Part shown: positions 1 through 35,932 of the stretch, one piece after another
Position numbering within the stretch: position 1 is the stretch's first letter
How the letters are laid out: each line of letters begins with the position of its first letter
Assembly: GCA_002293615.1 (NCBI GenBank)
Contig: DBDN01000081.1
Span: 25,744-61,699, forward strand
DNA: 35,956 nt
Reading direction: 5' to 3'
DNA from: Betaproteobacteria bacterium UBA931
GTDB taxonomy: Bacteria; Pseudomonadota; Gammaproteobacteria; Burkholderiales; Casimicrobiaceae
The notes under the pieces: model-generated
Database searches by the model: none
Told to the model about the DNA's origin: nothing
What the model saw: the letters and a program-made list of their open reading frames with translations, nothing else
Position numbers and translations under genes: made by a program

Positions 1-1311
1 ACCGCCGGCGTTGTCGGTGATCGGCCCATAAGCGTCGAGTGCGACGATAATACCGGTCATCGACAGCATTGCGGTTGCCGCCACGGCGATTCCGAACAAG
101 CCAGCCAACGCGTAAGCGCCGAGAATTGATGCACACACCGCGAGTACCGGCCATGCGGTTGCCTTCATGGAGATGCCGAGGCCGGCAATGATGTTGGTGG
201 CGTGGCCGGTCGTCGATGCTTCGGCGACGTGTTTGACCGGTTTGTAATCGGTGCCGGTGTAGTATTCGGTAATGACAACCATTGCCGCCGTTAACGCCAA
301 GCCGATCAACGATGAGGCAAAGATTCGGCACCAAGTCAGGTCAGGGTAATGCGTATTGATATCGGCAAACATGAGCCGGGTGATTACCGCAAAGCCGATC
401 GCGGCGAGAATGCCGGCCACGATGAGCCCTTTATACAGCGCTTTCATGATTTTGTTATCACCGGTTTTCACGAAGAAGCAGCCGATAATTGAGGCGACGA
501 TGGAAAGTCCGCCCAATGCCAACGGATAAGTGACTGTCGTTTCGGCAATCGCGGGCAACATCAACGCGCCGAGCAACATGGTGGCGACGATGGTTACCGC
601 ATAGGTTTCGAAAAGGTCGGCGGCCATACCGGCGCAGTCACCGACGTTATCGCCGACGTTATCGGCAATCACTGCGGGGTTGCGCGGATCGTCTTCGGGG
701 ATACCGGCTTCAACTTTACCGACAAGATCAGCGCCGACGTCCGCGCCTTTGGTAAAAATGCCGCCACCCAGACGGGCAAAGATCGAGATCAGCGAACCGC
801 CGAAAGCGAGACCGACCAACGGCTGAATGGTATGGTGCAAATCGCGCGAAGCGTCCGGCGCCATGGCCAGCAAGATGCAATAAAAACCGGCAACGCCCAG
901 TAGGCCAAGGCCGACCACCAGCAAACCGGTGATTGCACCGCCGCGGAACGCAATATCAAGCGCTGGGGCGATGCCGCCGCGCGCCGCTTCGGCGGTGCGC
1001 ACATTGGCTCGTACGGAAACGTTCATACCGATATAGCCCGCCGCGCCGGAAAGCACAGCGCCGATCAGAAAACCAAACGCGGTCAGCCAGTTCAACGCGA
1101 TGCCGATGATAATGAATAATACTGCGCCGACGATACCGATGGTCAGATATTGGCGATTCAAATATGCTTTTGCGCCGGCCTGAATCGCGCCGGCGATTTC
1201 ACGCATGCGTTCGTTACCGTCAGATTTTTTGTTGATCCAAGCAATGGATGCGGCACCGTAAACCAGCGCCAGAACGGCGCAGCCAAGCGCCAAAGCGAGT
1301 CCTAGAGACAT
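1..1311 (-). CDS. hppA: K+-insensitive H+-translocating pyrophosphatase, N-terminal 437 codons (partial, continues past the left edge)
   Basis: My hand translation of the minus strand from ATG 1311..1309 gives [61 protein letters not shown]... This is the typical N-terminus of membrane pyrophosphatases. The frame stays open to position 1, so it is missing from the ORF track because it is open-ended. Confidence 0.88.
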
Positions 1312-1578
1312 AACCGTATATTCCCAAAAACTAATTTTCAGGCATCAAGAACGCTTTATGTTCGGACCGAATGCGGTGTCGTTAAAACGTTCGCAGTGCC
1401 TATCCATAACCCCACCAGACGGCGAGGCGCTCAATATGTTGCCGTTTGGGCAAATGTAACTGCGCTCATAAGGCGGCAAACGCGCTATTCTCCGTTTCTT
1501 TGCCGTGCTTGTCGAGCGTTTGCGATAGAAAATACGATTTTTCGTAATTTATGCGGAAAGAACGGAGGAAATGAGACG

Positions 1579-2181
1579 CTATGCAATAAGGGTTTTCGGG
1601 GCCAGTACCAGATGGCGCAGTTCTTCTTCGGTGGGCGGGTGCAATGGGTCGAAAGAAAGATAATTGGCGCCGGCCGTTTTCAAAGCTGCTTGCTTGGCTT
1701 TATGCAGGCGCATGCGGTCAGTGTCTGTGACAATGGCAGGGTCTTCAAGATCAACGATGGCGATGATGACCATGTCGCCATCACAAATGACAAAGCTGAC
1801 GTCGAGGAAGGCGATGCGGCGAAACGCTTCGATACGCATTTCATCACCTTCTATGCCCGCAAGTTGTAATAAATCGATCATGCGGACACGCGCCAGCACT
1901 TCATGCTGAGGAAAGGCATGTTTTAAATATTGGTACGCGATTGTTTCCAGTTTGCTCAAAAAACGCGGGCGCATCATATAAAAACCGGGCTGTTCCGCCG
2001 AAGATAATAAACGCGTGGTTTCTCCCTCGGTCCAGCCGGGCAGTGATACGGTGTCTGCGCCGATCATGGCCCGAAATTTTTTTGCCTGCTTGTCGCGCCG
2101 GATAAAGCCGGTGATAACGATTACGGCAAAAACGATCAATAGAAAAGTAAACAGCCAAACACCATTTCCCGGATTATCCAT
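1579..2181 (-). CDS. Membrane-anchored DUF2726-like protein (restriction-endonuclease-like fold family, function unknown)
   Basis: 200-aa ORF with an N-terminal TM helix (VWLFTFLLIVFAVIVITGFI). The C-terminal block FLDVSFVICD...IIAIVDLEDP...DRMRLHKAKQAALKTAGANYLSF fits the DUF2726 pattern as I remember it. Confidence 0.6.
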   Translation of the reverse strand: MDNPGNGVWLFTFLLIVFAVIVITGFIRRDKQAKKFRAMIGADTVSLPGWTEGETTRLLSSAEQPGFYMMRPRFLSKLETIAYQYLKHAFPQHEVLARVRMIDLLQLAGIEGDEMRIEAFRRIAFLDVSFVICDGDMVIIAIVDLEDPAIVTDTDRMRLHKAKQAALKTAGANYLSFDPLHPPTEEELRHLVLAPKTLIA

Positions 2182-15586: not shown

Positions 15587-16957
15587 TTACCCCGGTAACT
15601 CAATGCCTTTCAATCGTCGATAAAGCGTCATCGCGTACGAATCGGTCATGCCGCAGATGAAATCGACTACTTTCATCAAGCGCAGGTAAGGGTCTGCGTT
15701 GGGAAGTTTGTTTTTATCGAGAAATTGCTCGGGCAGCAACGTCATCAAAACACGGCTGCGAATAGGCGTGTTTTCTTTCTTCTCGGCGGCAGCGCGCTGC
15801 ATGACTGCGGTAAAGAACAAATCGAGCAAACCGGAGATTACCTCACAGCCGGCAGCTTCGATTTCCATCGCCGAACGAGCGACATAAATGGTGTCGTACG
15901 ATAGTTTTTCGATGATGTTCAGTGTTTCGATCGCTTTTGATTCTTCCAGTAATGCGCAGTCGTATTTGCCGCAAACGATCTCGTTTTCATGCGCAAGAAA
16001 GATTACGCCGACTTCATCAACGAGCCGCCCGATGGCTTTGGCACGCAGGTATTCGATGCGTTCTTTGGGGTCGGCAATCGCTTCGGCGCGCGCGGTGTTA
16101 ACAGAGCCGCCTGCGACTTTCATCAGCAATTCTTCGGCATCGCGGTACGGCACAATACCGATACGGGCGGCGTCTTCGAGATCGACAATGCGGTAGCAGA
16201 TGTCGTCGGCGGCTTCGACAAGAAGCGCTAACGGGTGCCGCCGCCATGCGCCGTCACCGCGATTGATCATGCCGACTTCTTCGGCGGCCTCGCGAAACAG
16301 TGTCGCCTCCGTCTGGAAAAATCCGAATTTTTTCATGGAGCGTCCGTCGAGCGGGGCTTGTATTTGTGAAGCGCACGGATATTTGGAAAACGCCATTAAG
16401 GTGGCAGCGGTCAATTGCAGTCCGCCGCAGTTCGATGGGCTTTGTAATGCTGTAAGCAGGCGAAAGCCTTGCGCGTTACCTTCGTAACGTTCGAAGTCGG
16501 CGCGTTGCGCTCCGGTTAAGCCAAGCCGATCAAGCGCGCCGTCCGGCTGGCGGCACCATTCGCGGATGGTGTCTTCTCCCGCGTGCCCAAACGGTGGGTT
16601 GCCGATATCGTGGGCAAGACAGGCCGCGGCAACCACCGCACCGAAATCGGAAGCATGCAAAACATCATGTAACCGATGGCGATCAACCAATATCCGTCCG
16701 ACACCGGCGCCGAGCGAGCGCCCGACACACGATGCCTCCAGGCTGTGTGTTAAACGGTTACGCACATAATCGCTTTGCGCAAGTGGAAAAACCTGTGTTT
16801 TATCTTTCAGGCGGCGGAATGCCGATGAAAATACGATGCGGTCGTAGTCTTGTTGGAAAACGCTGCGGTCCGGCGCGGTTTTGGCGGATCCGGCCGCGCC
16901 GATTCGACGGGGGGACAGTAAGGCGCGCCAGTTGCGGGATAAATCGGAAGGAGGCAT
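15587..16957 (-). CDS. dGTPase-like deoxynucleoside triphosphate triphosphohydrolase (HD domain)
   Basis: FQQDYDRIVFSSAFRRLKDKTQVF, RLTHSLE and CLAHDIGNPPFGH motifs. I chose the ATG at 16957 (MPPSDLSRNW...); the ORF track extends to 17167. Confidence 0.85.
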   Translation of the reverse strand: MPPSDLSRNWRALLSPRRIGAAGSAKTAPDRSVFQQDYDRIVFSSAFRRLKDKTQVFPLAQSDYVRNRLTHSLEASCVGRSLGAGVGRILVDRHRLHDVLHASDFGAVVAAACLAHDIGNPPFGHAGEDTIREWCRQPDGALDRLGLTGAQRADFERYEGNAQGFRLLTALQSPSNCGGLQLTAATLMAFSKYPCASQIQAPLDGRSMKKFGFFQTEATLFREAAEEVGMINRGDGAWRRHPLALLVEAADDICYRIVDLEDAARIGIVPYRDAEELLMKVAGGSVNTARAEAIADPKERIEYLRAKAIGRLVDEVGVIFLAHENEIVCGKYDCALLEESKAIETLNIIEKLSYDTIYVARSAMEIEAAGCEVISGLLDLFFTAVMQRAAAEKKENTPIRSRVLMTLLPEQFLDKNKLPNADPYLRLMKVVDFICGMTDSYAMTLYRRLKGIELPG

Positions 16958-17005
16958 GATATTCTCTTGGAAACAATGTGCCGAGTGTACACTTTCCGAT
17001 CCGTC

Positions 17006-17962
17006 ATGAACAAGAATGACAAAACCGCCGCGCCGGAAACCGGTGAACCTGTCAGCGCCGAAAATCGCGCTTGGCTTGACGCGTTTGCGCAATTTCTCGG
17101 CGTTCAGGCGAAAAGAACGCGCGATGCGTATGTGCGCGATACCGAAAAGCTTGCCGTTGCCACACATCCTGCGCCGCTGGCGTCATTGACGCGGGCGCAG
17201 ATTGCCCGCCGGCTTGCGCAGTGGCACGCGCAGGGTTTATCGGGAAGAAGCCTGACGCGGATGCTGTCTTCGTGGCGGGCGTTTTACCGCTTTTTGCTTG
17301 CGCAGGCCAACAGCCCGATACAGGATGATCCGTGTGCGCATTTGAAAGCGCCGCGCAGCGCGCGTCGCTTGCCTTCGGTGTTGACGATCAGTGAGACGCA
17401 GCAGTTATTCAATCATCAAGAGACAGAAGATAATGTAATGAATGTGCGCAATGCCGCACTTTTTGAATTGACGTATTCGTCAGGTTTGCGCGTTTCGGAG
17501 TTGGCCGGGCTGGATATTGCTCATGTTGAGCTGGTTAGGCAAGAGGCACGTGTCCTCGGCAAGGGCGGCAAAGAGCGCATCGTGCCGATCGGCCGTTACG
17601 CAATTGCCGCGCTTGAGCGGTGGCTGCCGGTTCGGGCGACGATTCTTCGCGAACACGCTGCTGAAAAGGAGCAGGCGTTGTTTGTCAATCAGCGTGGGCG
17701 GCGTCTTTCGGCGCGTAGCGTGCAGGATTTTTTACGACGGTTATCCGTAGAAAAAGGGTTGGTGAAAAACGTGCATCCGCACATGCTGCGCCATTCGTTT
17801 GCGTCGCATTTTTTAGAATCGTCGGGCGATTTGCGGGCGGTCCAGGAATTGCTCGGACACGCGTCGATTGCCAGCACGCAGGTGTACACTCATCTTGATT
17901 ATCAGGCGTTGGCCAAAGTATACGATGCGGCGCACCCACGTGCCCGCAAAGGAAAAGGATAA
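17006..17962 (+). CDS. xerC: Tyrosine recombinase XerC
   Basis: [33 protein letters not shown] and [15 protein letters not shown] give the catalytic R...HxxR...H...Y set. Core-genome context. The xerC versus xerD call rests on context only. Confidence 0.8.
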
Positions 17963-23197: not shown

Positions 23198-23826
23198 GTA
23201 CCAAAGAACAAGTTGTCACACGTCACTCGTTCCCGGTGCGCGTCGCTCATTGGCTGGTTGTGTTGAGCTTTCTGTTGCTGGCGATTTCCGGACTGGGCCT
23301 TTTCTTCCCATCATTGAACTGGATGACTTCGGTACTGGGTTCGCCCCAGCTTGCTCAGTTTTTGCATCCGGTTTTTGGGGTCGTGATGGTTTTGGGCATG
23401 GTGATTCTGTTTTTCGGCAATGTCGCCCACGCGTTCCCTGAAAAAGGCGACGGCCAGTGGATGATGCATATGGTGGACGTGCTCAAAGGACACGAACACG
23501 AGGTTGCCGAAGTCGGGCAATATAACGCCGGGCAGAAAATGCTGTTCTGGACGATTATCGGTTTGCTGGCAATATTGCTGGTTACCGGCATCATTGTCTG
23601 GCAGCCGTACTTTGCGCCGTTTTTTGCGGTATCGATCGTACGCTTGTGCCTGTTTTTGCATTCACTTTGCGCGGTGCTGCTGATCATGGCTATTTTCATG
23701 CATGCGTATATGGGCTTCTGGTATAAAGGCACATTGCGCGGCATGGTGTATGGCACGGTCACCCGCTCTTGGGCGAAGCTGCACCACCCGCGTTGGCTGC
23801 GGCAACTGGAGGGAAAGAAGAAGTAA
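23194..23826 (+). CDS. fdnI: Formate dehydrogenase cytochrome b556 (gamma) subunit
   Basis: 210-aa four-helix membrane protein ([24 protein letters not shown]...). ATGA overlap with fdnH. Confidence 0.9.
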
Positions 23827-24764
23827 TGGGAAGAGCATTATCATCATCACAAACGATTGATATCGCTTCACTTGCAACAACGGCGGAACCAGTTCCGCCG
23901 TTGTTGCAAGTAGATCTGCGGGCAATGTATCTACACCGCAGCGAACGGCTGCGCACGTTGGCCAAAGATCATCACACGATGGCCGATTATCTTTCGTTTG
24001 TCGCGGATATTGTCGATACGCAATATCGTATTTTTCAGGAGAAACCGCTACCGGCGGCACAGGAACAGTCGTCGCTTGTGGTGGATTGGCATACCGCGCC
24101 GTTGTCGAAGCAAACCGTAAAACGTGACGGTTACTGGCTGGAGGTTTTTGATCAACTGCTCATACAGTTATCGGAAAAACACCCGAATGGCGCTATTGCC
24201 GAAACATTGACGCGTTTACGCAACACGAGTGTTGATGCCAAAGAGAAAATTGCGGATCAACTGCTGACGGGCGATGTTTCCGGAGCCGGAAGCGATGGTG
24301 CGCCGTTTGTTTGGGCGGCGCTATCGCTTTATTGGTCGCAGCTGGTGCGACAGAAACCGCTGATTCCGCACGAAACAGTTGGCGTTGCCCGCGATCTTTG
24401 CCCGATTTGCGGCAATGCTCCGGTGGCGAGCGTTGTCACCATTGGTCCGCCGGAAGGTGTGCGCTATCTGCATTGCGCGTTGTGTGAAAGCGAATGGCGT
24501 TACGTGCGCGCGCAGTGTACGAATTGCGAAAAAAGCGGTAAGCTGCATTATTGGTCGCTGGATGACAAAGACGCGGCGGTCAAAACGGAAAGCTGTGGCG
24601 ATTGCCACAGCCATTTGAAGATTTTATTTCAGAACAAAGACGGACACATTGATCCGGTAGCAGACGATCTCGCCAGTTTGGCGCTCGATGCGCGTATGGA
24701 AGAGGAAGGGTTTGCTCGGAGTGCGGTGAATCCATTTTTGTTTCCTGCGCCTGAGCATGACTGA
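23826..24764 (+). CDS. fdhE: Formate dehydrogenase accessory protein FdhE
   Basis: IPPLLQ-type N-terminus ([26 protein letters not shown]) and four CxxC pairs (CPICG, CALCE, CTNCE, CGDCH). TAATG overlap with the fdnI stop. Confidence 0.9.
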
Positions 24765-26169
24765 TACGAGCCTTTATCGAAGCCTTCCATCCGTCGATCG
24801 CCTTCTTTCCGAAGAAGGGGTAATGGATTTAGCGCAGACATATGGTCACGAACTGGTGGCTTCATGTCTGCGTTTTTTGCTGGACGAAGCGCGCGTTGAA
24901 ATCAAAGCGCGTCACGCATTGCCTTCCTGGACGAGCGATTGGACGGGCGCATTGTGCAAAAAACTCAAAGAGCGCACGCACGCTTCACTGCGCCCGGTGT
25001 TTAATCTGACCGGTGTTGTGCTGCATACCAATTTGGGTCGCGCCTGCCAGGCCGAGGCGGCCATTGAAGCGGTAACGCGGGCCATGCGCGAGGCGGTAAC
25101 GCTCGAATACGATCTTGGGCAAGGAAAACGCGGGCATCGCGATGCGGTGGTAAGCGAATTATTGCGTGAGATTACCGGCGCGGAAGCGGCATGCGTCGTC
25201 AACAACAACGCCGCGGCCGTTTTGCTGATGTTTGCAGCCATGGCCGATGGCAAAGAAGCAATTGCGTCGCGCGGCGAACTGATCGAAATCGGTGGCTCGT
25301 TTCGTATTCCCGATGTGATGCGCCAGGCGGGTTGCCGCCTGATTGAAGTCGGGACAACGAACCGGACACACCTGTGCGATTATCAGAATGCGATCAACGA
25401 AAATACTGCGCTGCTGGTCAAGGTGCATACCAGCAACTATCGCATCGAAGGGTTTACTGCCGCTGTTTCCGAAGCGGAGCTGGCGGTGCTCGGTCGGGAA
25501 ACCGGCATTCCGGTGGCCAGCGATCTGGGCAGCGGCGCGCTGGTTGATTTAAGCGTATATGATCTGGTGGCCGAATCCATGCCGCAGCAGATGCTGCGCG
25601 ATGGCGTTGGCCTGGTTAGTTTTTCCGGAGATAAACTATTGGGCGGCCCACAAGCAGGGATTGTTGTCGGGCGCGCTGACCACATACAGCGATTGCAAAC
25701 GCATCCGCTTAAGCGCGCCTTGCGTTGCGACAAAATGACGATTGCCGCTCTTGAGGCAACATTGCGCTTATATTTGCGTGCTGACCAATTGCCGCAATCG
25801 CTTCCTACCCTGCGTTATCTAACCCGTAAACCGCAAGCGATTAAAACACAAGCCGATCAACTGTTGCCTTTGTGCCAAGCGCTTTTTGGCGCACAGTTTA
25901 TTGTGCGTAGCGAAGCCTGTTTTTCGCAGATCGGGAGCGGCTCGCTACCGCTCAATACTTTACCGAGCTGGTCGTTGACGTTTATGGCGCGCGACGGACG
26001 TGGCCGTACGCTGGAATCGTTGTCTGAATATTGGCATACACTGGAAAAACCGATTATTGGCCGTATCGCCGATAATAAATTATGGCTGGATTTGCGTTGC
26101 GTTGACGATGATAAAGCGTTGGCGCAAGCGCTGCGCGATGCGGTGCCGCCGATGGTGTCATCGCCATGA
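24757..26169 (+). CDS. selA: L-seryl-tRNA(Sec) selenium transferase
   Basis: [13 protein letters not shown]-terminus, [16 protein letters not shown] and [14 protein letters not shown] (PLP lysine region). Overlaps the fdhE end by 8 nt. Confidence 0.95.
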
Positions 26170-28079
26170 TTATTGCCACCGCCGGGCATGTCGATCACGG
26201 GAAAAGCGCGTTGTTGCAGGCGTTGACCGGTATTGACCCGATGCATCTTCCTGAAGAAAAGCGGCGTGGCATGACCATCGACATCGGCTTCGCTTTTTTA
26301 CCGGTGAACGAAAAAAAAATAATCGCTTTTGTCGATGTACCCGGGCACGAAAAATTTTTATCCAATATGCTGGTTGGTGTCGGCGGTGTGCAGCACGCAT
26401 TATTGGTCATTGCTTGCGACGACGGCATTATGCCGCAAACCCGTGAGCACGCTGCGATTTTAAAACTATTACGGGTCGAGCAAATTACCATTGCGCTGAC
26501 TAAAGCCGACCGTGTTGATTTGGCGCGGCAGCAAGCACTGCGGCAGGAAGTTCAAAATTGGCAGGCGGCACTTGGTTTTGGCCAAGTGCCGATGTTCATC
26601 ACATCGGCGCACAGCGGTATGGGCATTCACGAGCTACGCCAGCATTTAATCGCACTACCGGATACGCTTGCTGAAAACGCACACACACGTCGCTTTCGTC
26701 TTGCGATTGATCGCGTATTTCATGTGCGTGGTTCCGGCGTTGTGGTGACCGGTACGGCGCTGAGCGGGCAAGTCAATATAGGCGATATGCTATGGCTTAC
26801 CGGCGCCGAACAGCAAGTGCGCGTGCGTGATTTGCACGCGCAGAATCAGCCGGTGAAAAAAGCGCAAGCCGGGCAGCGTGTCGCGCTTAACCTTGTCGGG
26901 CGTTTGGAAAAGCAGGATATCACGCGTGGCGACTGGCTGTTATCGGAGAAACCGACGGAATCGATATCGCGGATATTGGTACAAGTGGAGACAGTGCCGG
27001 ATGTCCATATAGCGTTTCGTCACTGGCATGCCGTGCACGCACATCACGGTGCGCAGCATGCCAGCGGCCATCTTGCGTTGTTGCAGGAAAAACGATTGTC
27101 CGGCGACATCATACTTGCCGAAGTTGTGCTTGATGCGCCGATGTACCTTGCCGAAGACGACCGCTTGATTTTGCGCGACAGCGGCACACAGCGCATCGTT
27201 GCTGGCGCGCGCGTTCTTTCGCTGCACCCGCCGCGTCGTGGTAAACGGCAATCGGTATTCCTCGACTGGCTCAAGGAAAAAGCGTTGCACGATGGCGATC
27301 AGGCGTCGCTTCGTTTGCTTCTGCAGCAAGGCCATGTGGCGCTGTCGGATTTTGCTTGGGCTCGCCAACTCAATGAAGCGGGCTTACGGGCATTATGCGC
27401 CATGTTTTCTGATGTGCTGATCAGCGGCGATTTCGCAATGGCGAAAGAACGGGCGCAGCAGCAGCGGGAGCGCATTTTGGAAATGCTGGCGATGGTACAT
27501 CGGCAGATGCCCGATCAAATCGGTGTTGGGCGTGCCCGCCTGCACCGCATGGCATTGCCTGCCGTACCCGAAGCGCTGGTATTTGCGCATATCGAATACC
27601 TGCTCGGCGAAAGTAAAATCGTCAACAATAATGGCTGGTTGCATTTGCCCGAACACAACATTGCTTTAACGGAGGCGGAGCAAGCGCTCTGGCAACGTGT
27701 TGAACCATTTTTTGCAAAAGCGCCTTGCTGGACGCGCGATCTGGCGGTAGCGCTGTCCGTTCCCGAAGAAGACATGCGCGCTTTTTTACGCAAAGCGGCT
27801 CGGCTCGGAGAAGTTACCGCCGTTGTACGCGATCGTTATTATTTAACAAAACAGATCGCCGAACTGGCAACCTTGGTGCGCGATCATGGTTGCGATCATG
27901 CGGGTGCGCTGCGTGACCGTCTGAATATCGGGCGTAAACTGGCGATTCAGATACTGGAGTTTTTTGATCGCAGCGGATTTACTCGTCGACAAGGCGATAA
28001 ACATCTCTTACGCGACGCCGAATTGTTTAAAATAGCAAATACGACGGCAGCGCATGGCGATGATGATGGTATTAGTTGA
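26166..28079 (+). CDS. selB: Selenocysteine-specific translation elongation factor
   Basis: [23 protein letters not shown]1 motif, DVPGHEKF and TKADRV, followed by a long winged-helix C-terminal half. ATGA overlap with selA. Confidence 0.95.
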
Positions 28080-28083
28080 CAAC

Positions 28084-28178
28084 GGAAGAGCCGCGTCCCC
28101 GGTGGGGCGGCTGGACTTCAAATCCAGGTGGGGCCGCCAGCGGTTCCGGGCAGGTTCGACTCCTGTGCTCTTCCGCCA
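28084..28178 (+). tRNA. selC: tRNA-Sec (anticodon UCA)
   Basis: ggaagagccgcgtccccggtggggcggctggacttcaaatccaggtggggccgccagcggttccgggcaggttcgactcctgtgctcttccgcca. It has an 8-bp acceptor stem, a cTTCAAa anticodon loop and a long variable arm, and is near-identical in layout to E. coli selC. It starts 4 nt after the selB stop. Confidence 0.95.
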
Positions 28179-28218
28179 TTCTTTCGATATTTTTTGCTGT
28201 GTCCGGTGAACGTGTGTT

Positions 28219-28248
28219 TTGACAAAATCAGCGTTGTTCCCGTAGAAT
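28219..28248 (+). promoter_or_regulatory. Near-consensus sigma70 promoter for tRNA-Leu
   Basis: TTGACA (28219..28224), 18-nt spacer, TAGAAT (28243..28248), then a GC-rich discriminator ggcgctccc just before the tRNA 5' end. Confidence 0.55.
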
Positions 28249-28260
28249 GGCGCTCCCATT

Positions 28261-28345
28261 GCCCAGATGGCGGAATTGGTAGACGCGCTAGTTTCAGGTA
28301 CTAGTGGAGAGATCCTTGGAGGTTCGAGTCCTCTTCTGGGCACCA
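28261..28345 (+). tRNA. tRNA-Leu (anticodon CAG)
   Basis: gcccaga acceptor, D-arm gcggaattggtagacgc, anticodon stem-loop ctagt-TTCAGGT-actag, long variable arm, T-arm gaggttcgagtcctc, and a 3' end tctgggcacca. Confidence 0.95.
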
Positions 28346-29488: not shown

Positions 29489-29497
29489 CGCTATAAG
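29485..29497. repeat. Copy 2 of the 13-bp perfect direct repeat ttgacgctataag (spans the int stop codon)
   Basis: Exact match to 28381..28393. Confidence 0.9.
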
Positions 29498-29611
29498 TTC
29501 GTTTTCCGGTCGTTTCTGAAAAAACTTTCAAAAATATTCAAAAAAATATTTTCCGATTTGATGCACCTTAAGTCGGGATAAACCACAATATGTAGATATA
29601 CGCATAGAAAC

Positions 29612-29640
29612 TTGAATAATTAAAGTTAATCGGGTAATGT
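29612..29640 (+). promoter_or_regulatory. Candidate sigma70 promoter for the AT-rich cassette
   Basis: TTGAAT (29612..29617), 17-nt spacer, TAATGT (29635..29640), about 40 nt upstream of ATG 29682, which has an aagga RBS. AT-rich DNA produces such matches easily. Confidence 0.35.
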
Positions 29641-29681
29641 GTTGTCATCTTCCAGATAGCACTTTATAAGGATAAAAATAT

Positions 29682-30044
29682 ATGGCTAATCAAGTGAACG
29701 TTCAATCTAGAAAGTTTGAAACCCAAAAGGAAGCAGAAGCTCATTACTATGAATTAATTAATAAATGGCATGAAGAAAATAGCGGAATCAGCGAGGGTGA
29801 TGAACATTTCCCAGATTTCCGAGAAATATATACAGAGTATTGCAAAACCGAAAAGTATCAAACCTCAGGGCTTGAAAGTGGAATCAAAAGATTCTGGGCT
29901 GATTATTCTACCAAGCCTACAAGCGCAGGGATTTACCGCTCTACAGTTTGTTGCCATGTGGAATTCAATAATGGTGGTGAGGACGAGTTTTCAATAAAGA
30001 AAGCAATAAAAGCAATAGCTAATGAACAAAGATCAAAGAAGTAA
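29682..30044 (+). CDS. Hypothetical 120-aa protein (weakly reminiscent of DUF3223; family not confidently recognised)
   Basis: Clean ORF with an RBS in very AT-rich DNA, 15 nt upstream of the DUF1643 gene. The sequence is MANQVNVQSRKFETQKEAEAHYYELINKW...CCHVEFNNGGEDEFSIKKAIKAI. Confidence 0.6.
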   Translation: MANQVNVQSRKFETQKEAEAHYYELINKWHEENSGISEGDEHFPDFREIYTEYCKTEKYQTSGLESGIKRFWADYSTKPTSAGIYRSTVCCHVEFNNGGEDEFSIKKAIKAIANEQRSKK

Positions 30045-30059
30045 TAAACGGCCATTATT

Positions 30060-30548
30060 ATGAAGATAGATTCCAACGCAAAATTTTCACATTGTAGGCG
30101 CTATCGCTACATGCTCTGGCGTATCTGGGATAAAGCTAAACCAGCCATGACCTTTCTGCTGCTCAATCCATCAAAAGCAGACGAAGAAATAAATGATCCG
30201 ACTATTACGCGTTGTTGGCGCCGTGCTGAAAGGTATGGATTGGGAGGGATGCGTGTAGTTAATCTCTTCGCGTGGAGGTCAACCTCTCCGGATGAACTCT
30301 ATATTCCCGAAGATCCCATCGGCCCTGAAAATGATTCGTATATTCTGGAAGCTTGCCGTGATACAGATGTCGTTTTGTGTGGGTGGGGTGGATATGGAAA
30401 ATTACAAAATCGCGGCAATGCTGTTTTGAAATTATTGCTTGATCATCAGGTCAAGCCGATGTGCTTGGGTGTAAATAAAGACGATACTCCTAAGCATCCA
30501 TTGTACGTCAGATACGATGTTCAGCCAATACCGTATGTGCCAGGCTAG
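30060..30548 (+). CDS. DUF1643-family protein
   Basis: Hallmark N-terminal CRRYRYMLWRIW, followed by FLLLNPSKADEEINDPTITRC and a C-terminal PKHPLYV. About 160 aa, as is typical for DUF1643. Confidence 0.8.
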   Translation: MKIDSNAKFSHCRRYRYMLWRIWDKAKPAMTFLLLNPSKADEEINDPTITRCWRRAERYGLGGMRVVNLFAWRSTSPDELYIPEDPIGPENDSYILEACRDTDVVLCGWGGYGKLQNRGNAVLKLLLDHQVKPMCLGVNKDDTPKHPLYVRYDVQPIPYVPG

Positions 30549-30552
30549 AAAA

Positions 30553-30816
30553 TCACCCGCGCACATTCCTGTACCGCATCACTTCTTTCGCACGCCAGCG
30601 CAGATTTGCTCTTTCCTTCCCATTGCCGAGGTTCGCTTGCGGCTTCGGAAAATCCGGCCAAGTGCGGATGCGATCAAATTGAGTGCGCGAAATACCGAGC
30701 GCCCGGGCGCACTGATCGGCGTCCCATAATTGATACTCAAACGGCACGCCGCTGATAATGTCCGGCATGACTTCGCGCAGTGCTTCGACAAAGGCGGTTG
30801 CTTCGGCTGTGGTCAC
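30553..30816 (-). CDS. AlpA/excisionase-like helix-turn-helix protein
   Basis: DADQCARALGISRTQFDRIRTWPDFPKPQ...LRWRAKEVMRY resembles the AlpA/Xis HTH pattern. The GTG start forms a GTGA overlap with the C5-methyltransferase stop; an internal ATG at 30768 is an alternative. Confidence 0.6.
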   Translation of the reverse strand: MTTAEATAFVEALREVMPDIISGVPFEYQLWDADQCARALGISRTQFDRIRTWPDFPKPQANLGNGKERANLRWRAKEVMRYRNVRG

Positions 30817-32477
30817 GCCGCTCTCCGTTGCTTTCCGACCGCTATTTCCGGTACGTTGGCGCGAACAATCGCGGCGGCCACCGGCGGGCAGACGCTATTG
30901 CCGCACATGCGCACCTGGGCGTATTTCGGCAACGTCAATCCCTGCGCGGGATCGTCGCCGATGATGTAGGTTTCCGGGAATCCTTGCGCGCGGTACAGTT
31001 CACGCGGCGTCAACATCCGCATGCCGATATCGGCAATCATATAATCTTCGCCGGCAACGGTAACCAGCCCGAAGCGATCACGCGCAGTGACCGTGTGCAT
31101 CGGGTCGTGCAACTCGGCGCCGTCTTTTTCGTTGCCGTAGTATTTAAGCAAGAATGCGCGGACCTCGCCGAAATGTGTTCCTTGCGCGCTGATAGTTTGA
31201 AGCGGCGCATCAGTTCGTTGTCCGATGTTTGTCCCGCGCAATTTAACAAGGTGCGACGCGACCAGCCCCATTGTGTTGGCTGTGCCTGGACGTTGTTGTT
31301 CGCCGCCAGCTGTGATTGTTTTGGCTGGCTCGGCGGGAGACGATCCGACGGAGTTCGTCCGAAACTGTGTCAGGTGTGCCGTGACCAGCGTTTTGTGATT
31401 TTCGGCAACAAGCGTCCCAATCGGCTTATCTGTGCCAGTGGGCTTTTGTGCATACTTGCCGCCACCGATCCCCATCAAATGCGCTGAAACAAGCGAATTG
31501 TGATCGATAGCCGTGACCGTCGGTGCCGGATCGGTAAGCGGCGCACTGACAACGCCGGTGAAATGTTTCGCAAGAAACGTAGATACCAGCGCAGTACCAT
31601 GGCTTGCCGTAATCGTTTTTAAAGGATCATTAATCGCCTGCCCGCGAAATGCATCGTAATAACTGGCCGTATGATTGCATTTAACGATAAACGGATCGGC
31701 GGCGTTGACGACATAACGCATGATGCCCTTCGCGATGCGCCGTAATGTCGCCTCAGCCAGCGGTCGCTTACGCTCAAAAATCGAAGGGCAGGGGATGGAC
31801 CAGTCGATGCAATCGGCAGCCGTGCGCCACGCCGGCAGCCCTGTTTTTTTCTCCGGGTCGCCATGTGTCGGATCCGGCCAGACAATCGGCAGGCCGTCAC
31901 GCCTGGCGATCATAAACAGGCGCTTTCGTATCGTCGGCGCGCCGTAATCGCAGGCGCGCAATTCGCGCCATTCGACCTGATAACCTTGTCGTTTCAGAGC
32001 GTTCACAAAAGCATTGAATTCACGCCCCTTGCGCTTTGGGCAAGGGCGAGCGGATCCAGCATCATCAACAATGAGCGGCCCCCATGTCGTGAATTCTTCG
32101 ACATTTTCGAGCATGATCACGCGCGGCTTTACCGTTGCTGCCCAACGTAGCGCTACCCATGCCAGTCCGCGAATCTTTTTCTCGACCGGTTTACCGCCTT
32201 TGGCTTTTGAAAAGTGCTTGCAATCCGGCGATAACCAGACCAGCCCGACGGGCCGGCCCTGTGTTACCTCACGCGGATCAACCTCCCAAACCGATTCACA
32301 ATAATGGTGCGTTTGCGGATGATTGGCAGTGTGCATTGCAACGGCATCTGGATCATGATTGATCGCGATGTCAACGTGCCGTCCGAGTGCGAGTTCAATA
32401 CCTGTCGATGCACCACCACCGCCGGCGAAATTGTCAACGATCAGTTCGTCGTGGATGTCGAGGATGTGTTGTTTCAT
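30813..32477 (-). CDS. DNA (cytosine-5)-methyltransferase, phage type, with an expanded repetitive variable region
   Basis: Motif I DNFAGGGGAS, motif IV SPDCKHFS, motif VI MLENV, motif VIII RKRLFMIA, and C-terminal RMLTPRELYRAQGFP...GNSVCPPVA. Confidence 0.9.
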   Translation of the reverse strand: MKQHILDIHDELIVDNFAGGGGASTGIELALGRHVDIAINHDPDAVAMHTANHPQTHHYCESVWEVDPREVTQGRPVGLVWLSPDCKHFSKAKGGKPVEKKIRGLAWVALRWAATVKPRVIMLENVEEFTTWGPLIVDDAGSARPCPKRKGREFNAFVNALKRQGYQVEWRELRACDYGAPTIRKRLFMIARRDGLPIVWPDPTHGDPEKKTGLPAWRTAADCIDWSIPCPSIFERKRPLAEATLRRIAKGIMRYVVNAADPFIVKCNHTASYYDAFRGQAINDPLKTITASHGTALVSTFLAKHFTGVVSAPLTDPAPTVTAIDHNSLVSAHLMGIGGGKYAQKPTGTDKPIGTLVAENHKTLVTAHLTQFRTNSVGSSPAEPAKTITAGGEQQRPGTANTMGLVASHLVKLRGTNIGQRTDAPLQTISAQGTHFGEVRAFLLKYYGNEKDGAELHDPMHTVTARDRFGLVTVAGEDYMIADIGMRMLTPRELYRAQGFPETYIIGDDPAQGLTLPKYAQVRMCGNSVCPPVAAAIVRANVPEIAVGKQRRAA

Positions 32478-33574
32478 GCCATCTCCAATTTCAAACCGGC
32501 TTGAGCCGTGCGCTCGGCTTGCAGTGCTTCATAATCGCGGTTCAGTTCGCATCCGATCCAATTCCTACCCAGATGCTGCGCTACCTGACCGACGGTGCCG
32601 GAGCCAAAGAAAGGATCGAAAATAATATCGCCGACACGCGATCCGGCCAGAATACAAGGCTCAACCAGTGCTTCGGGGAACGTCGCGAAATGTGCGCCGG
32701 TGTACGGTTGCGTCGGGATTGTCCAGACACTACGCTTGTTGCGCGTGCCAGCGTAGTCGATATTCTCTCTGTCGGCGCGATGTTGGGCTTGTTGTCCTGG
32801 CGGGGTGCCTTCTTTTGTTGATCGAGCGAAAGAGTTTTTCTTTGAACCGCTGTACCGACCGATCAATCCGTTATGTCCTCCTTTGCCGGTGTCCCATCCG
32901 GATGGTACATGCTGTTTTTTCCGATACGCTTCTGGGTTCAAGTTCTCTTTTGAATCGTATCCAAGAGTACGATTCCGTACTACCCCGGCGTCGCGGTTTT
33001 CGTGAGTTGTTGCGTCTTCTTTGATCGCGGCAGCGTCGAAATAATATTTTCGACTTTTTGATAGAAGAAAAATATATTCATGCGATTTCGTGCATCGATC
33101 CTTAATGCTTTCGGGCATCGGATTTGGTTTTGACCAGATAATATCTTGGCGCAATATCCATCCAGCGGCTTGCAATGCAAACGCTACGCGCCACGGGGAT
33201 CCTATAAGGTTTTTTGTTCTTAGCCCGGTGAAAGTTTTTTGGCGTCCGATAGAGGTGTTTCCGTGTAAATCCTTGCAATGTTTTCCCCCCGTGCTACCGC
33301 CCCATTTATCATCGTGTGCATAGCTGTCTCCGAGATTAAGCCAGAGTGTTCCGTCATCAGCTAATAGCTGGCGACACAATGAAAATACTTCGACCATATT
33401 TTTCACGTACTCATCGACAGTGCTTTCTAAACCAAGCTGTCCTTCTACGCCGTAGTCTCGTAGCGCAAAGTACGGCGGGCTGGTGATGATGCAATTAACG
33501 CGCACGCCAGACTTGATCATGTCTCGCATGATTGCGCGGCAATCTCCGAAGTGGCAGCGGTTAAGCCAGTTCAT
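32474..33574 (-). CDS. Beta-class N6-adenine/N4-cytosine DNA methyltransferase (N6_N4_Mtase family)
   Basis: Catalytic motif IITSPPYF near the N-terminus, with the SAM motif IIFDPFFGSGTVG and HFATFPEAL near the C-terminus. ATGA overlap with the C5 MTase start. I chose the ATG at 33574; the track start is 33667. Confidence 0.85.
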   Translation of the reverse strand: MNWLNRCHFGDCRAIMRDMIKSGVRVNCIITSPPYFALRDYGVEGQLGLESTVDEYVKNMVEVFSLCRQLLADDGTLWLNLGDSYAHDDKWGGSTGGKHCKDLHGNTSIGRQKTFTGLRTKNLIGSPWRVAFALQAAGWILRQDIIWSKPNPMPESIKDRCTKSHEYIFLLSKSRKYYFDAAAIKEDATTHENRDAGVVRNRTLGYDSKENLNPEAYRKKQHVPSGWDTGKGGHNGLIGRYSGSKKNSFARSTKEGTPPGQQAQHRADRENIDYAGTRNKRSVWTIPTQPYTGAHFATFPEALVEPCILAGSRVGDIIFDPFFGSGTVGQVAQHLGRNWIGCELNRDYEALQAERTAQAGLKLEMA

Positions 33575-33641
33575 GCTGCGATATCCTGTTCCGCAAGTTC
33601 GCAAAATACGCCACACGAAAACCAACAGACGATTCTTTTTT

Positions 33642-34706
33642 TCACAATGCAATCTCCGGGAAAGCATCGTGTATCACGCCGTCGAGCGTGCGGCCTGCGC
33701 GTTTAGTGCCGCAGCGGAACATGACCCCTCTGTTGTATGGCGGAGGCAGTCCAGAAGGAGGGCGTTCAATCGTTTTGTGATGATATTTCGTATCGCATAG
33801 ACAATTTGGTGCCCATTCTCCCCACTGCTTAAAAAAGAACGGCACACCAGTGCTTACGCATTGATCTCGCAGGGAGCGAACCCATTCAGGATGCATCGGT
33901 CGGGCGTTTTTGCCGGATTCTCCGCCGACTATTAGCCAGTCAAGTTTTGTTAAGTCCGTTTCGACAGAACTATTCTCAAAGTCGGGATCATTAACAGCCG
34001 CTATCCACCTGCCTTCAAGTACGTTGTACGTTCCAGGTTCGTTTCTCCATTTTGGTTTTAATCCATAATCGTCAAGACACAATAAATCAATCGCCCCAAG
34101 CAACGGCTCCGCACTGATAAAGCGTAGCGCTGCCGGTGTCTTGAGAAGTAGCGGTATGCGTTCGTTCGCTATCTGTTGATCCTCAACAGAGACGCCAAGC
34201 CAAATACGCGGGTGCGGTTCTGATGATTGATATAACACTTGGTCATAGATTCCGTCAGGCTCAAATCCTCCGCCATAATGAACCGCATGTCTTGCCCATG
34301 TTTCTGATCTATTTGTTGAAAGATATTTTTGCATACGCTCTGGGCGTTTCGTTAATATTTGAAACACATGCCCGTCAATGCAGTTACGCCTTAAATACAA
34401 ACACGACCACATGACCCCGAACACACTATCAATAAAATCGTCCGGTACATTCTCGTGGAACAGATCGCCGCGCGGGCAGACGAAAATCTTCTTCGGCTTC
34501 TTTGTCCGTAGCGGCTCTTCCAGTTTTTCCGGGTGGCAGCGAACGTCGGTAAATGCGCGTCCGTACCAGATCGACTTTGGGTTCTTCGACCAGCGTTGCG
34601 TAACCTCACGCTCGGCGTAGCAGTGCTTGCATCCTTGCGATACTTTCGTGCATCCGGTTACCGGCGACCACGTCGTATCAGTCCATGAGATTTGACTTTT
34701 GTTCAT
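33642..34706 (-). CDS. DUF5131 (phage Gp37/Gp68, three-Cys-motif) family protein
   Basis: ISWTDTTWSPVTGCTKVSQGCKHCYAE (C19-x6-C26-x2-C29), FQILTKRPERM, ISAEPLLG, DWLIVGGESG...RPMHPEWVRSLRDQC...PFFFKQWGEW. Confidence 0.85.
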   Translation of the reverse strand: MNKSQISWTDTTWSPVTGCTKVSQGCKHCYAEREVTQRWSKNPKSIWYGRAFTDVRCHPEKLEEPLRTKKPKKIFVCPRGDLFHENVPDDFIDSVFGVMWSCLYLRRNCIDGHVFQILTKRPERMQKYLSTNRSETWARHAVHYGGGFEPDGIYDQVLYQSSEPHPRIWLGVSVEDQQIANERIPLLLKTPAALRFISAEPLLGAIDLLCLDDYGLKPKWRNEPGTYNVLEGRWIAAVNDPDFENSSVETDLTKLDWLIVGGESGKNARPMHPEWVRSLRDQCVSTGVPFFFKQWGEWAPNCLCDTKYHHKTIERPPSGLPPPYNRGVMFRCGTKRAGRTLDGVIHDAFPEIAL

Positions 34707-34709
34707 GAT

Positions 34710-35069
34710 TTATTCGTTGCTTACTGCTACGCGCAACGCTGGCGGCGAGTGCATCCGTTGCTGTTCGCGTTCATAGGCTATTTTGCAATGCTTAGGTTCA
34801 GCAAAAAAGACCAAATCGACGACGAAACGGGCAATGCACCAGCCAATTAGTGGGTTTTCCTGCTGTGATTTGCGCCAGCAGCGCGCCGACAGGGTTTCGT
34901 CTGCCCAGCCATCACGAATCGGAAGCAGTGCATTGATAAGCTGGTCAAGCGCAATCAATACTTGCAGCAACCAAAATTGCAGATATTTCAGAAAGCGTTT
35001 GAATTTTTTCATGGTCGTTATATCTTTTTCACAAAAGGATACCGATGGGGCATAAAGCCCCGCTTTCAT
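34710..35069 (-). CDS. Small hypothetical membrane protein (phage-associated)
   Basis: TM segment FWLLQVLIALDQLINALL, then GWADETLSARCWR. Start is either ATG 35069 (TAATG overlap with the upstream stop) or ATG 35012 (MKKFKRF...). Confidence 0.5.
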   Translation of the reverse strand: MKAGLYAPSVSFCEKDITTMKKFKRFLKYLQFWLLQVLIALDQLINALLPIRDGWADETLSARCWRKSQQENPLIGWCIARFVVDLVFFAEPKHCKIAYEREQQRMHSPPALRVAVSNE

Positions 35070-35932
35070 TAAAAAGGCTTACCGAAAAAGAACGGTACGC
35101 CGGTTTTTTCTTTGATCGTCTGGATCATGGTCTTTGTCGCGTCTTCGAGCGCTTTGTCGTGGCGCAGCAATTCGTACCAAAACGTCAATCGTCCTTCACG
35201 TACTCGGTAGCGCAGGCGTACTTCGATCCGGTATGCATCACCGCTCCAGAAAACCGGAATACCGATATTGAAGCGATCAAACATTTGCATTTTCTGGATC
35301 GTCGCGTCATCGTCCTTATCGATAAACGCCATTTCAACTCCACCGGACTGCAAACGGATGAAACTCTTGAAACGCGCATCTTGGTTCGCTTCAAATTGCA
35401 GCGCCATGTCGAGCATTTGCACGCCAGACGCGCTGCCGTTGTGACTGGTGATATCGCTCATGTTGTCCTCAATGAACATCGCGAATTCAATTTGGCTCAT
35501 CAGCTTTTTGTCTGATCCTGTCCAGCGCTGGAACTCTTCGCTGTATTCCGGCAAGAATTTGGCTGTATGGTCGCGCCATGCCGGTTTATCTTCGTCTTCG
35601 CCGTGATCGTTCAAGATGGACAAAAAGTTGACTTTACAATCACGATAATCGACATCACACCAGACAGTTGCGTAAGCAAGCGAGCCGTGGCGCTTGATGT
35701 AGTCGATGAAGCTGTCCGCGTCGTTTAATTCAACGGCGGCTATTTTGCGGCGCGGCGTTGGACGTAATTGAATATCATCGTTATATTTGGTTGTCCAGCC
35801 AGGCGGCAGCAAGGCCATTTGCTGATCTTCGCTTGCTGCACTTTTGATGATAACGGGCGACTTCATTTCACGCGCCAGCGTTTCGGCGATATTTTCTGTT
35901 CTGGCAAGTTCTTCAAAAGTGGTATCGTTCAT
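35069..35932 (-). CDS. DUF2303 (YfdQ-like) prophage protein
   Basis: 287 aa. The overall pattern (...FIDYIKRHG..., ...SQIEFAMFIEDN..., ...FNIGIPVFWSGDAYRIEVRLRYR...) matches my recollection of the YfdQ/DUF2303 family from lambdoid and CPS-53-type prophages. Confidence 0.7.
   Translation of the reverse strand: MNDTTFEELARTENIAETLAREMKSPVIIKSAASEDQQMALLPPGWTTKYNDDIQLRPTPRRKIAAVELNDADSFIDYIKRHGSLAYATVWCDVDYRDCKVNFLSILNDHGEDEDKPAWRDHTAKFLPEYSEEFQRWTGSDKKLMSQIEFAMFIEDNMSDITSHNGSASGVQMLDMALQFEANQDARFKSFIRLQSGGVEMAFIDKDDDATIQKMQMFDRFNIGIPVFWSGDAYRIEVRLRYRVREGRLTFWYELLRHDKALEDATKTMIQTIKEKTGVPFFFGKPF

Follow-up and report, generated by a model that had tools for sequence, protein, structure and literature searches.

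An AT-rich islet next to the integrase gene of a Casimicrobiaceae prophage carries a HamC-like gene and a DUF1643 gene

The DUF3223 domain is also known as the DeCL domain, and the copy in Arabidopsis Domino binds both RNA and a partner protein (bioRxiv 10.64898/2026.01.19.700320). In bacteria, DUF3223 is found as the accessory protein HamC in about 3.8% of Hachiman systems, where its function is unknown (PMC8565338; PMC11914072). DUF1643 is one of three conserved small open reading frames (ORFs) of SCCmec elements, together with the uracil-DNA glycosylase (UDG) inhibitor SaUGI and DUF960, and these ORFs adjoin primase, helicase, and recombinase genes (PMC7581432; PMC10581047). Here, we describe a 1.06-kb AT-rich cassette (positions 29489-30552) in which one gene of each kind, ORF-A (DUF3223-like) and ORF-B (DUF1643), lies between the tyrosine integrase gene (int) and the early operon of a prophage in Betaproteobacteria bacterium UBA931 (Casimicrobiaceae; contig DBDN01000081.1). 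The whole stretch of DNA analyzed, 35,956 nucleotides (nt) in length, is referred to as the window. An earlier reading of the same DNA (the original prediction) took the two genes to be a candidate undescribed defense module. The locus is ordinary: it is AT-rich prophage cargo beside int, made of two described DUF families. We hold with moderate confidence that the cassette is a horizontally acquired, moron-type cargo islet of two independent accessory genes with the roles proposed below, and not a two-component system.

The G+C content of the cassette was 39.5%, compared with 52.6% for the whole window. The 1064-nt segment with the lowest G+C content in the 35,956 nt essentially coincided with the cassette and lay 4.8 standard deviations below the non-overlapping segments (z = −4.8), the minimum of which was 45.7%. 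The original prediction had forecast a dip below the flanks and had listed six hand counts of G+C in 60-nt lines (18, 25, 22, 26, 27, and 37); the dip was confirmed, and all six counts were exact. The G+C contents of the flanking genes were 58.4% (int), 57.6% (a small helix-turn-helix [HTH] gene), and 56.3% (a C5-cytosine methyltransferase gene). Within the cassette, ORF-A had a G+C content of 37.2% and a G+C content at third codon positions (GC3) of 31%, and the corresponding values for ORF-B were 45.2% and 42%. The gap of 8 points in G+C between the two genes, accompanied by one of 11 points in GC3, is mild evidence against one common history. These results support the view that the cassette is cargo of foreign composition, lodged between int and the early operon.

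The junction occupied by the cassette was compared with that in 14 viral contigs encoding related integrases, 12 of which shared 41-53% identity with the integrase examined here (overall range, 23-53%). The relatives with 41-53% identity were located at the ends of viral contigs of 30-38 kb. In nine of the 14 prophages, int directly abutted the convergent early operon, leaving an empty junction, and a few others had unrelated small genes in this slot, some of them AT-rich. Neither the ORF-A family nor DUF1643 was found in the slot of any of the 14. Since nine of the 14 junctions were empty, the int-proximal junction appears to be a variable cargo slot. Because the integrases are distant (23-53% identity), however, this comparison is not one with an isogenic empty site. 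The cassette thus combines a distinct composition, a leader of its own, and a position that is empty or differently occupied in relatives, by which a prophage moron or cargo islet is recognized, and the assignment of a cargo position beside int in the original prediction was upheld. Like prophage morons and int-proximal hotspots, the cassette has an AT-rich leader, a low G+C content, a position at the end carrying int and the attachment (att) site, an anti-lytic orientation, and variable content. Unlike typical morons, it holds two families of unknown function and no recognized defense, toxin, or conversion gene. In one of the related-integrase prophages, the genes adjacent to int (encoding 90 and 125 amino acids [aa]; positions 995-1646, minus strand) had a G+C content of 34-38%, compared with approximately 45-50% for the rest; this AT-rich pair occupies the same slot on the other strand and belongs to unrelated families.

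To define the linkage between the two families, a profile of the ORF-A family was searched against six-frame ORFs within approximately 4 kb of DUF1643 at 88 loci. These comprised six metagenomic close relatives, 78 of 80 genome loci (80 species) gathered with a nine-sequence alignment, and four annotated phage or plasmid records. No ORF-A-like neighbor was found at any of the 88 loci, and relaxing the threshold to E <= 10 brought none beyond the element itself. Reciprocally, DUF1643 was absent from all nine distinct ORF-A-family loci, each covering 8-24 kb. The pair was confined to near-identical termite-gut metagenome contigs, all of which represent this same element, and at the nucleotide level the cassette had no match in E. 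coli genomes, phages, or plasmids. Clustering of the DUF1643 neighbors revealed no recurrent partner beyond genus-level synteny. DNA ligase, C5/N6 methyltransferase, DUF5131, primase, and ThyA were considered as a consistent partner of DUF1643 and rejected, each being sporadic (one to four of the 88 loci). Among 105 immediate DUF1643 neighbors subjected to a Pfam scan, the top families were thymidine kinase, GST, TruB, and CTP synthase, and no defense family was found; the neighbors are thus housekeeping or phage early genes. Neither the recurrence in unrelated genomes nor the enrichment beside known defense genes by which a conserved two-gene system is recognized was therefore observed, and the proposal of a two-gene module failed on both counts; a lack of linkage elsewhere was one of the outcomes that the original prediction itself had named as refuting it. 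Because the two families are never neighbors elsewhere, ORF-A and ORF-B are better regarded as two independent cargo genes than as a new defense system.

Although ORF-A had been described as a 120-aa unknown, it was matched over its full length by the PADLOC HamC models, with E-values of 7.2e-8 (PDLC00202, residues 1-116), 7.3e-6, and 3.3e-4. This significant full-length match places ORF-A in the DUF3223/DeCL family (PF11523; PADLOC HamC), and since ORF-A alone misses the Pfam PF11523 threshold, it is a divergent member. A word-indexed protein search with ORF-A returned only ORF-A itself, and an exhaustive HMMER scan of 1.84 billion representatives yielded 18 relatives with 28-40% identity, each of approximately 105-123 aa except for one protein of 944 aa. 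The HamC models were matched by 15 of 17 aligned family members (best, 2e-15), and PF11523 was matched by six of them. In addition, the family profile matched the DUF3223 nuclear magnetic resonance structure PDB 2K0M (E = 1.7e-3), including the C-terminal FS..K(A) motif. The AlphaFold2 model of ORF-A had a mean predicted local distance difference test (pLDDT) score of 89.8; a Foldseek search with it against the PDB gave nothing significant, and 2K0M was not recovered. PDB sequence searches with ORF-A and ORF-B gave only weak matches that were judged spurious (the GTP-binding protein 2DYK, NarJ, and an odorant-binding protein). From these profile matches, ORF-A is a divergent, solitary DUF3223/DeCL domain protein, predicted to have the fold of HamC from Hachiman type II. 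The comparators for this fold are PDB 2K0M, plant Domino, the C-termini of NRPD1 and NRPE1, and the ciliate La protein Mlp1.

Hachiman type II consists of HamC beside HamA and HamB, and this arrangement was not found at the ORF-A locus: neither HamA (DUF1837) nor HamB (helicase) was present within 6 kb of ORF-A, where int, DUF1643, the HTH gene, two methyltransferase genes, DUF5131, and DUF2303 are located. No HamA or HamB gene (DUF1837 or helicase) was found near any ORF-A relative inspected, either. The HamC-like nature of ORF-A is a link to defense that the original prediction missed, although ORF-A is an orphan that lacks HamA and HamB. Thus, ORF-A resembles the HamC of Hachiman type II in being a single domain of similar size (approximately 110-120 aa) with a full-length model match, and differs from it in lacking HamA and HamB and in belonging to a subfamily that is rare, AT-rich, and carried on plasmids and prophages. 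One relative is located in a P22-like Pectobacterium prophage between the lysis and packaging (terminase) genes, and another is on a small Rep3 plasmid. Others are in chromosomal islets, including one beside PhD/ParE between the ribonucleotide reductase genes nrdA and nrdB, and on IncF and Aeromonas plasmids. Of the 90 plasmids on which relatives were found, 52 were conjugative; the relatives on them are surrounded by small hypothetical genes, with umuDC, radC, and methyltransferase genes nearby. The G+C content of the relatives was 7-15 points below that of the flanks at five of six loci. Their solitary occurrence and low G+C content indicate a rare, roaming HamC-like subfamily and are the signature of a roaming xenogeneic gene.

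ORF-B matched Pfam PF07799 (DUF1643) over the whole profile (1-134 of 134) at 4.2e-45, with a score of 153.5 bits against a gathering cut-off of 22.5, and matched phrog_3230 at 1.9e-55; it is therefore a member of DUF1643. The gene calls of the sibling contigs differ in the start of ORF-B, three giving 145 aa (position 30111) and two giving 162 aa (position 30060). The conservation of residues 7-17 in homologues (A7, F9, S10, R16, and Y17) favors the 162-aa form. The closest non-identical relatives shared 52-62% identity (the nearest, 61-62%) and were inside co-directional phage early or replication arrays. One followed a DnaG primase gene with overlapping stop and start codons, one was downstream of an N6/N4 methyltransferase gene, and one adjoined DUF5131.

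DUF1643 was found in 149 phage records, including those of the lytic Caulobacter phiCbK group, Stenotrophomonas AXL3 and DLP3/DLP5, Pseudomonas Hollowayvirus, and mycobacteriophages. A DNA ligase gene was located within 4 kb of DUF1643 in phiCbK, AXL3, and DLP3, and in LKA5 a C5 methyltransferase gene heads the operon containing DUF1643. Among plasmids, 1177 records carried DUF1643, 910 of them conjugative. Approximately 1000 IncC plasmids share one conserved DUF1643 backbone gene (WP_001273096.1) in a long array of small hypothetical genes. This gene had an identical score and map position in Klebsiella, Salmonella, E. coli, and Providencia plasmids (e.g., positions 16794-17282 of the pNDM-EcoGN568 record), and the surrounding array also contains thermonuclease-family, HU-family, and RelE/ParE genes. 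In P. aeruginosa, DUF1643 is cargo of an ISL3 element. At 49 bacterial genome loci, the G+C content of DUF1643 equaled that of the flanks (mean difference, +0.8 points). No PADLOC model matched ORF-B or DUF1643, and neither a function nor a defense phenotype was found reported for DUF1643 in the papers searched. It is apparent that DUF1643 is a widespread, solitary mobile-element gene. Like the other mobile-element members (the SCCmec ccr-complex ORF, IncC WP_001273096.1, phiCbK gp264, AXL3 gp55, DLP3 gp128, and the P. aeruginosa ISL3 cargo), ORF-B matches the Pfam family over its full length and has approximately 160 aa. Unlike them, it is outside an early or replication array, reversed beside int, and within an AT-rich islet, with a DUF3223-like gene before it.

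In the genomes of three unrelated phage groups (phiCbK, AXL3, and DLP3 [PMC7326821]), DUF1643 was observed 1-4 kb upstream of the DNA ligase gene in the same direction. In AXL3, it is between the primase and thymidylate synthase genes, and in Sneathiella chromosomes it is followed by a thymidine kinase gene. This ligase and thymidylate company may hint at a role connected with nucleotides or base excision.

The original prediction had also attributed glycosylase-like motifs and a UDG fold to DUF1643, and this part stood only as far as short motif resemblances; a UDG fold was not found. The AlphaFold2 model of ORF-B (pLDDT, 93.5) gave no Foldseek match in the PDB at E <= 1e-3, and no glycosylase was among the top 50. 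The best PDB matches were generic three-layer alpha/beta proteins, namely, alpha/beta hydrolases, a transketolase subunit, and Toprim-domain proteins, with template modeling (TM) scores of 0.43 or below. A search against BFVD recovered other DUF1643 proteins alone, and a Pfam scan for weak matches in 53 DUF1643 members revealed no UDG family. A family-4 UDG profile was built from 1UI0, 1L9G, 4ZBX, and 8IIR with sequences harvested from PDB alignments. Comparison with this shallow profile using hhalign, in both local and global variants, gave a probability of 0.2% and no colinear alignment. With the single sequences of E. coli Mug and Ung, also shallow templates, the probability was 0.6%, and local matches were seen between LNPS and Mug GINPG (motif A) and between CGWG and Ung LLWG (beta-3). 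Structure comparison thus did not place ORF-B in the UDG superfamily. The invariant residues of DUF1643 are N36-P37-S38, N68, W109-G110, and H146-P147, and by eye they seem to be arranged and spaced like motif A, the beta-2 Asn, beta-3, and motif B of UDGs. A base-excision-like activity of DUF1643 is accordingly conceivable from its motifs, and it would fit the recurrent presence of ligase, thymidylate and thymidine enzymes, and SaUGI near DUF1643. Like Brig1, Brig2, and Brig3, the anti-phage glycosylases of the UDG superfamily, ORF-B is a small, single-domain alpha/beta protein on mobile DNA with UDG-like short motifs. On the other hand, no significant similarity in fold or profile was detected between DUF1643 and any UDG; Brig3 exceeds 225 residues (N225 is catalytic), whereas ORF-B has 162 aa, and Brig2 homologues are reported in A/T-rich regions, whereas DUF1643 genes match the genomic G+C content.

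In the reading that we favor, the islet would have been inserted into the variable slot between int and the leftward early operon of an enterobacterial-type prophage integrated at tRNA-Leu. Its two genes would have been acquired independently and would be expressed from the cassette's own promoter in the AT-rich leader. ORF-A may be an orphan DeCL/HamC-like small factor that binds RNA or protein. ORF-B may be a DNA-metabolism or establishment factor serving the mobile element's own DNA, perhaps a base-excision-like enzyme, and would not be a partner-dependent effector of host defense; that DUF1643 occurs in lytic phages, and belongs to the backbones of plasmids and SCC elements, speaks for a function on behalf of the mobile element. 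Several points weigh against this reading. The roles given to ORF-A and ORF-B amount to guilt by association. The two genes are 15 nt apart and co-oriented behind one common AT-rich leader, as a functional pair would look. Since only approximately 18 relatives of ORF-A are detectable, the absence of the pair elsewhere is compatible with a recent, lineage-specific partnership. The only named relatives of ORF-A, the HamC proteins, are part of a defense system. ORF-B is antisense to the early operon, unlike its closest relatives, and this fits expression in the lysogen, as for a defense or exclusion gene. Finally, the short motifs LNPS, VVN, CGWG, and HPLY of DUF1643 resemble those of UDGs, so that a glycosylase activity is conceivable. 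Explanations based on defense are kept alive by the close packing of the two genes, their common leader, their lysogen-type orientation, and the link to HamC.

Among these explanations, an undescribed two-component anti-phage system, in which DUF1643 would act as a UDG-fold glycosylase on modified phage DNA and ORF-A as its sensor or regulator, is very unlikely. It would account for the tight co-oriented pair, the shared AT-rich leader, and the int-adjacent cargo position. It also draws on the HamC-like character of ORF-A, HamC being an accessory of Hachiman type II (PMC8565338), on the local hhalign matches to UDG motif A and strand beta-3, and on the existence of the Brig1, Brig2, and Brig3 glycosylases, which tend to be in A/T-rich mobile contexts. 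However, the pair was not seen at any other locus (0/88 and 0/9), and no UDG fold was detected with Foldseek (PDB and BFVD) or hhalign (0.2-0.6%). Moreover, ORF-B lacks a PADLOC match, the neighbors of DUF1643 are not defense genes, and DUF1643 has no G+C deficit in genomes (mean, +0.8), its range extending to lytic phages and to the backbones of plasmids and SCC elements. We likewise see little prospect for a more specific mechanism, in which ORF-A, as an orphan HamC/DeCL-like protein that binds nucleic acid, would direct or control a minimal DUF1643 enzyme. The active site of this enzyme would be UDG-like (LNPS...N...WG...HPLY), and the pair would act on DNA that is modified or contains uracil, in defense or counter-defense. 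If it were true, such a guided system would give DUF1643, a backbone gene of IncC plasmids and SCCmec, its first assigned function. It is unlikely, though less so, that the genes are stacked single-gene immunity or exclusion factors expressed from the lysogen, with DUF1643 as a stand-alone Brig-like glycosylase or ORF-A as an orphan HamC-like sensor. The int-proximal position, the anti-lytic orientation, and the AT-richness are consistent with this, as are the AT-rich ORF-A relatives in a classical moron position (the P22-like prophage) and beside toxin-antitoxin genes, and single-gene glycosylase defenses are established. Nevertheless, neither a defense phenotype nor a model was found for DUF1643, which also occurs in strictly lytic phages and replication modules; HamC is not known to work without HamA and HamB, and the fold searches lent no support to a glycosylase.

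A role as anti-defense or establishment cargo, in which one or both proteins would shield the incoming or replicating element from host systems, with ORF-A as a HamC-like decoy against Hachiman and DUF1643 counteracting or replacing host uracil or base-excision processing, appears rather improbable. The latter function is suggested because SaUGI accompanies DUF1643 in SCC elements. The place of DUF1643 in the backbones of IncC plasmids and SCC elements, in the latter beside that UDG inhibitor, points in this direction, as do its presence in lytic phage early regions and the ORF-A relatives on 90 plasmids (52 conjugative) near umuDC, radC, and methyltransferase genes. This support is purely contextual, however, since no anti-defense activity is reported for either family, and ORF-A and ORF-B do not share the direction of the early operon, an unusual arrangement for anti-defense genes that are expressed early. 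A toxin-antitoxin or addiction module stabilizing the prophage is extremely improbable. A mobile element carrying a pair of small genes, adjacent and co-oriented, would suit it, as would the one ORF-A relative beside PhD/ParE, but neither family is a known toxin or antitoxin, and DUF1643 matches the G+C content of its flanks in many chromosomes and looks native there. This explanation was rejected because both families are overwhelmingly solitary, with no conserved partner.

The questions raised by the ORF-A subfamily and by DUF1643 are both independent of this particular cassette. Orphan copies of the HamC/DUF3223 subfamily may be decoys, regulators, or stand-alone factors. DUF1643 is widely carried (IncC backbone, SCCmec, and lytic and temperate phages), often near primase, ligase, and methyltransferase genes, and its activity, once found, would help in understanding resistance elements of clinical importance.

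The features of the locus are listed in Table 1. The ORF map and the Pfam match of ORF-B (4.2e-45) agree with the original prediction in that two co-oriented ORFs of 120 aa and 162 aa (DUF1643), 15 nt apart, are placed between int and the small HTH gene. Transcription against the phage operon was also confirmed: the cassette and the leftward early operon are convergent, with the stop codons of ORF-B and the HTH gene 4 nt apart. The HTH gene had been called AlpA-like. Its 87-aa product is indeed a small HTH protein, with matches to Pfam HTH_8 (weak; E = 0.039), phrog_4996 (unknown function; 5e-9), and phrog_668 (HTH DNA-binding; 6.4e-5), but it did not match Pfam Phage_AlpA, and small HTH or excisionase-like protein is the more fitting name.

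Table 1. Positions of the features in and around the cassette
Feature	Positions	Strand	Remarks
tRNA-Sec	28084-28178		after fdhE-selA-selB
tRNA-Leu(CAG)	28261-28345	+	ARAGORN; Rfam tRNA, 53 bits; just 3' of selB and tRNA-Sec
Tyrosine integrase (int), 332 aa	28490-29488	+	Pfam Phage_integrase, 5.4e-27, and Int_N; left flank of the cassette
AT-rich non-coding leader, 193 nt	29489-29681	+	30.6% G+C
ORF-A, 120 aa, divergent DUF3223/DeCL (HamC-like) protein	29682-30044	+	
Spacer between ORF-A and ORF-B, exactly 15 nt	30045-30059		
ORF-B, 162 aa, alpha/beta protein of the DUF1643 family	30060-30548	+	
HTH gene, 87 aa (excisionase- or regulator-like)	30553-30816	−	last gene of the leftward early operon
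C5-cytosine (554 aa) and N6/N4 (397 aa) DNA methyltransferases	30813-33667	−	Pfam DNA_methylase, 2.5e-31; N6_N4_Mtase, 1.9e-53; PADLOC MTase_II
DUF5131, 119-aa ORF, and DUF2303 (YfdQ-like)	33642-35932	−	early-gene block

An AAGGA Shine-Dalgarno sequence was found approximately 9 nt before the ATG of ORF-A, and no obvious Shine-Dalgarno sequence was present before ORF-B in the 15-nt spacer. A scan for promoters and terminators gave nothing beyond chance; a weak σ70-like site in the leader (29593-29620) had one 9/12 match, no more than expected by chance. No Rfam family was found in the leader (29489-29681). The AT-rich leader is probably the promoter region of the cassette itself. A 14-nt inverted repeat (93% complementary) connects ORF-A (29923-29936) with the C5 methyltransferase gene 1 kb away (30934-30947) and is probably due to chance.

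The leftward operon comprises the genes for the HTH protein, the C5 methyltransferase, the N6/N4 methyltransferase, DUF5131, the 119-aa protein, and the DUF2303/YfdQ-like protein, with YfdP further on in sibling contigs. It is the early-left region of an enterobacterial-type prophage, and the DUF5131/119-aa/DUF2303/YfdP block is of the kind found in the E. coli CPS-53/KpLE1 prophage. The two methyltransferase genes share a 4-nt overlap, and the C5 enzyme has a long insert between its Pfam-matched halves. No restriction enzyme was visible beside these orphan methyltransferases, which are probably phage self-protection methylases; they are outside the cassette and form its context.

The genes fdhE, selA, selB, tRNA-Sec, and tRNA-Leu(CAG) are contiguous in the window (23769-28345), and the integrase gene starts 145 nt past tRNA-Leu. 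Based on this distance, the element appears to be integrated at tRNA-Leu, beside the selenocysteine locus, and tRNA-Leu(CAG) is presumed to be the integration target on the attL side. No att-like repeat was detected when the window was scanned for repeats, and the element extends past the 3' end of the window. One sibling contig has different genes after DUF2303, indicating that the element is polymorphic in the metagenome.

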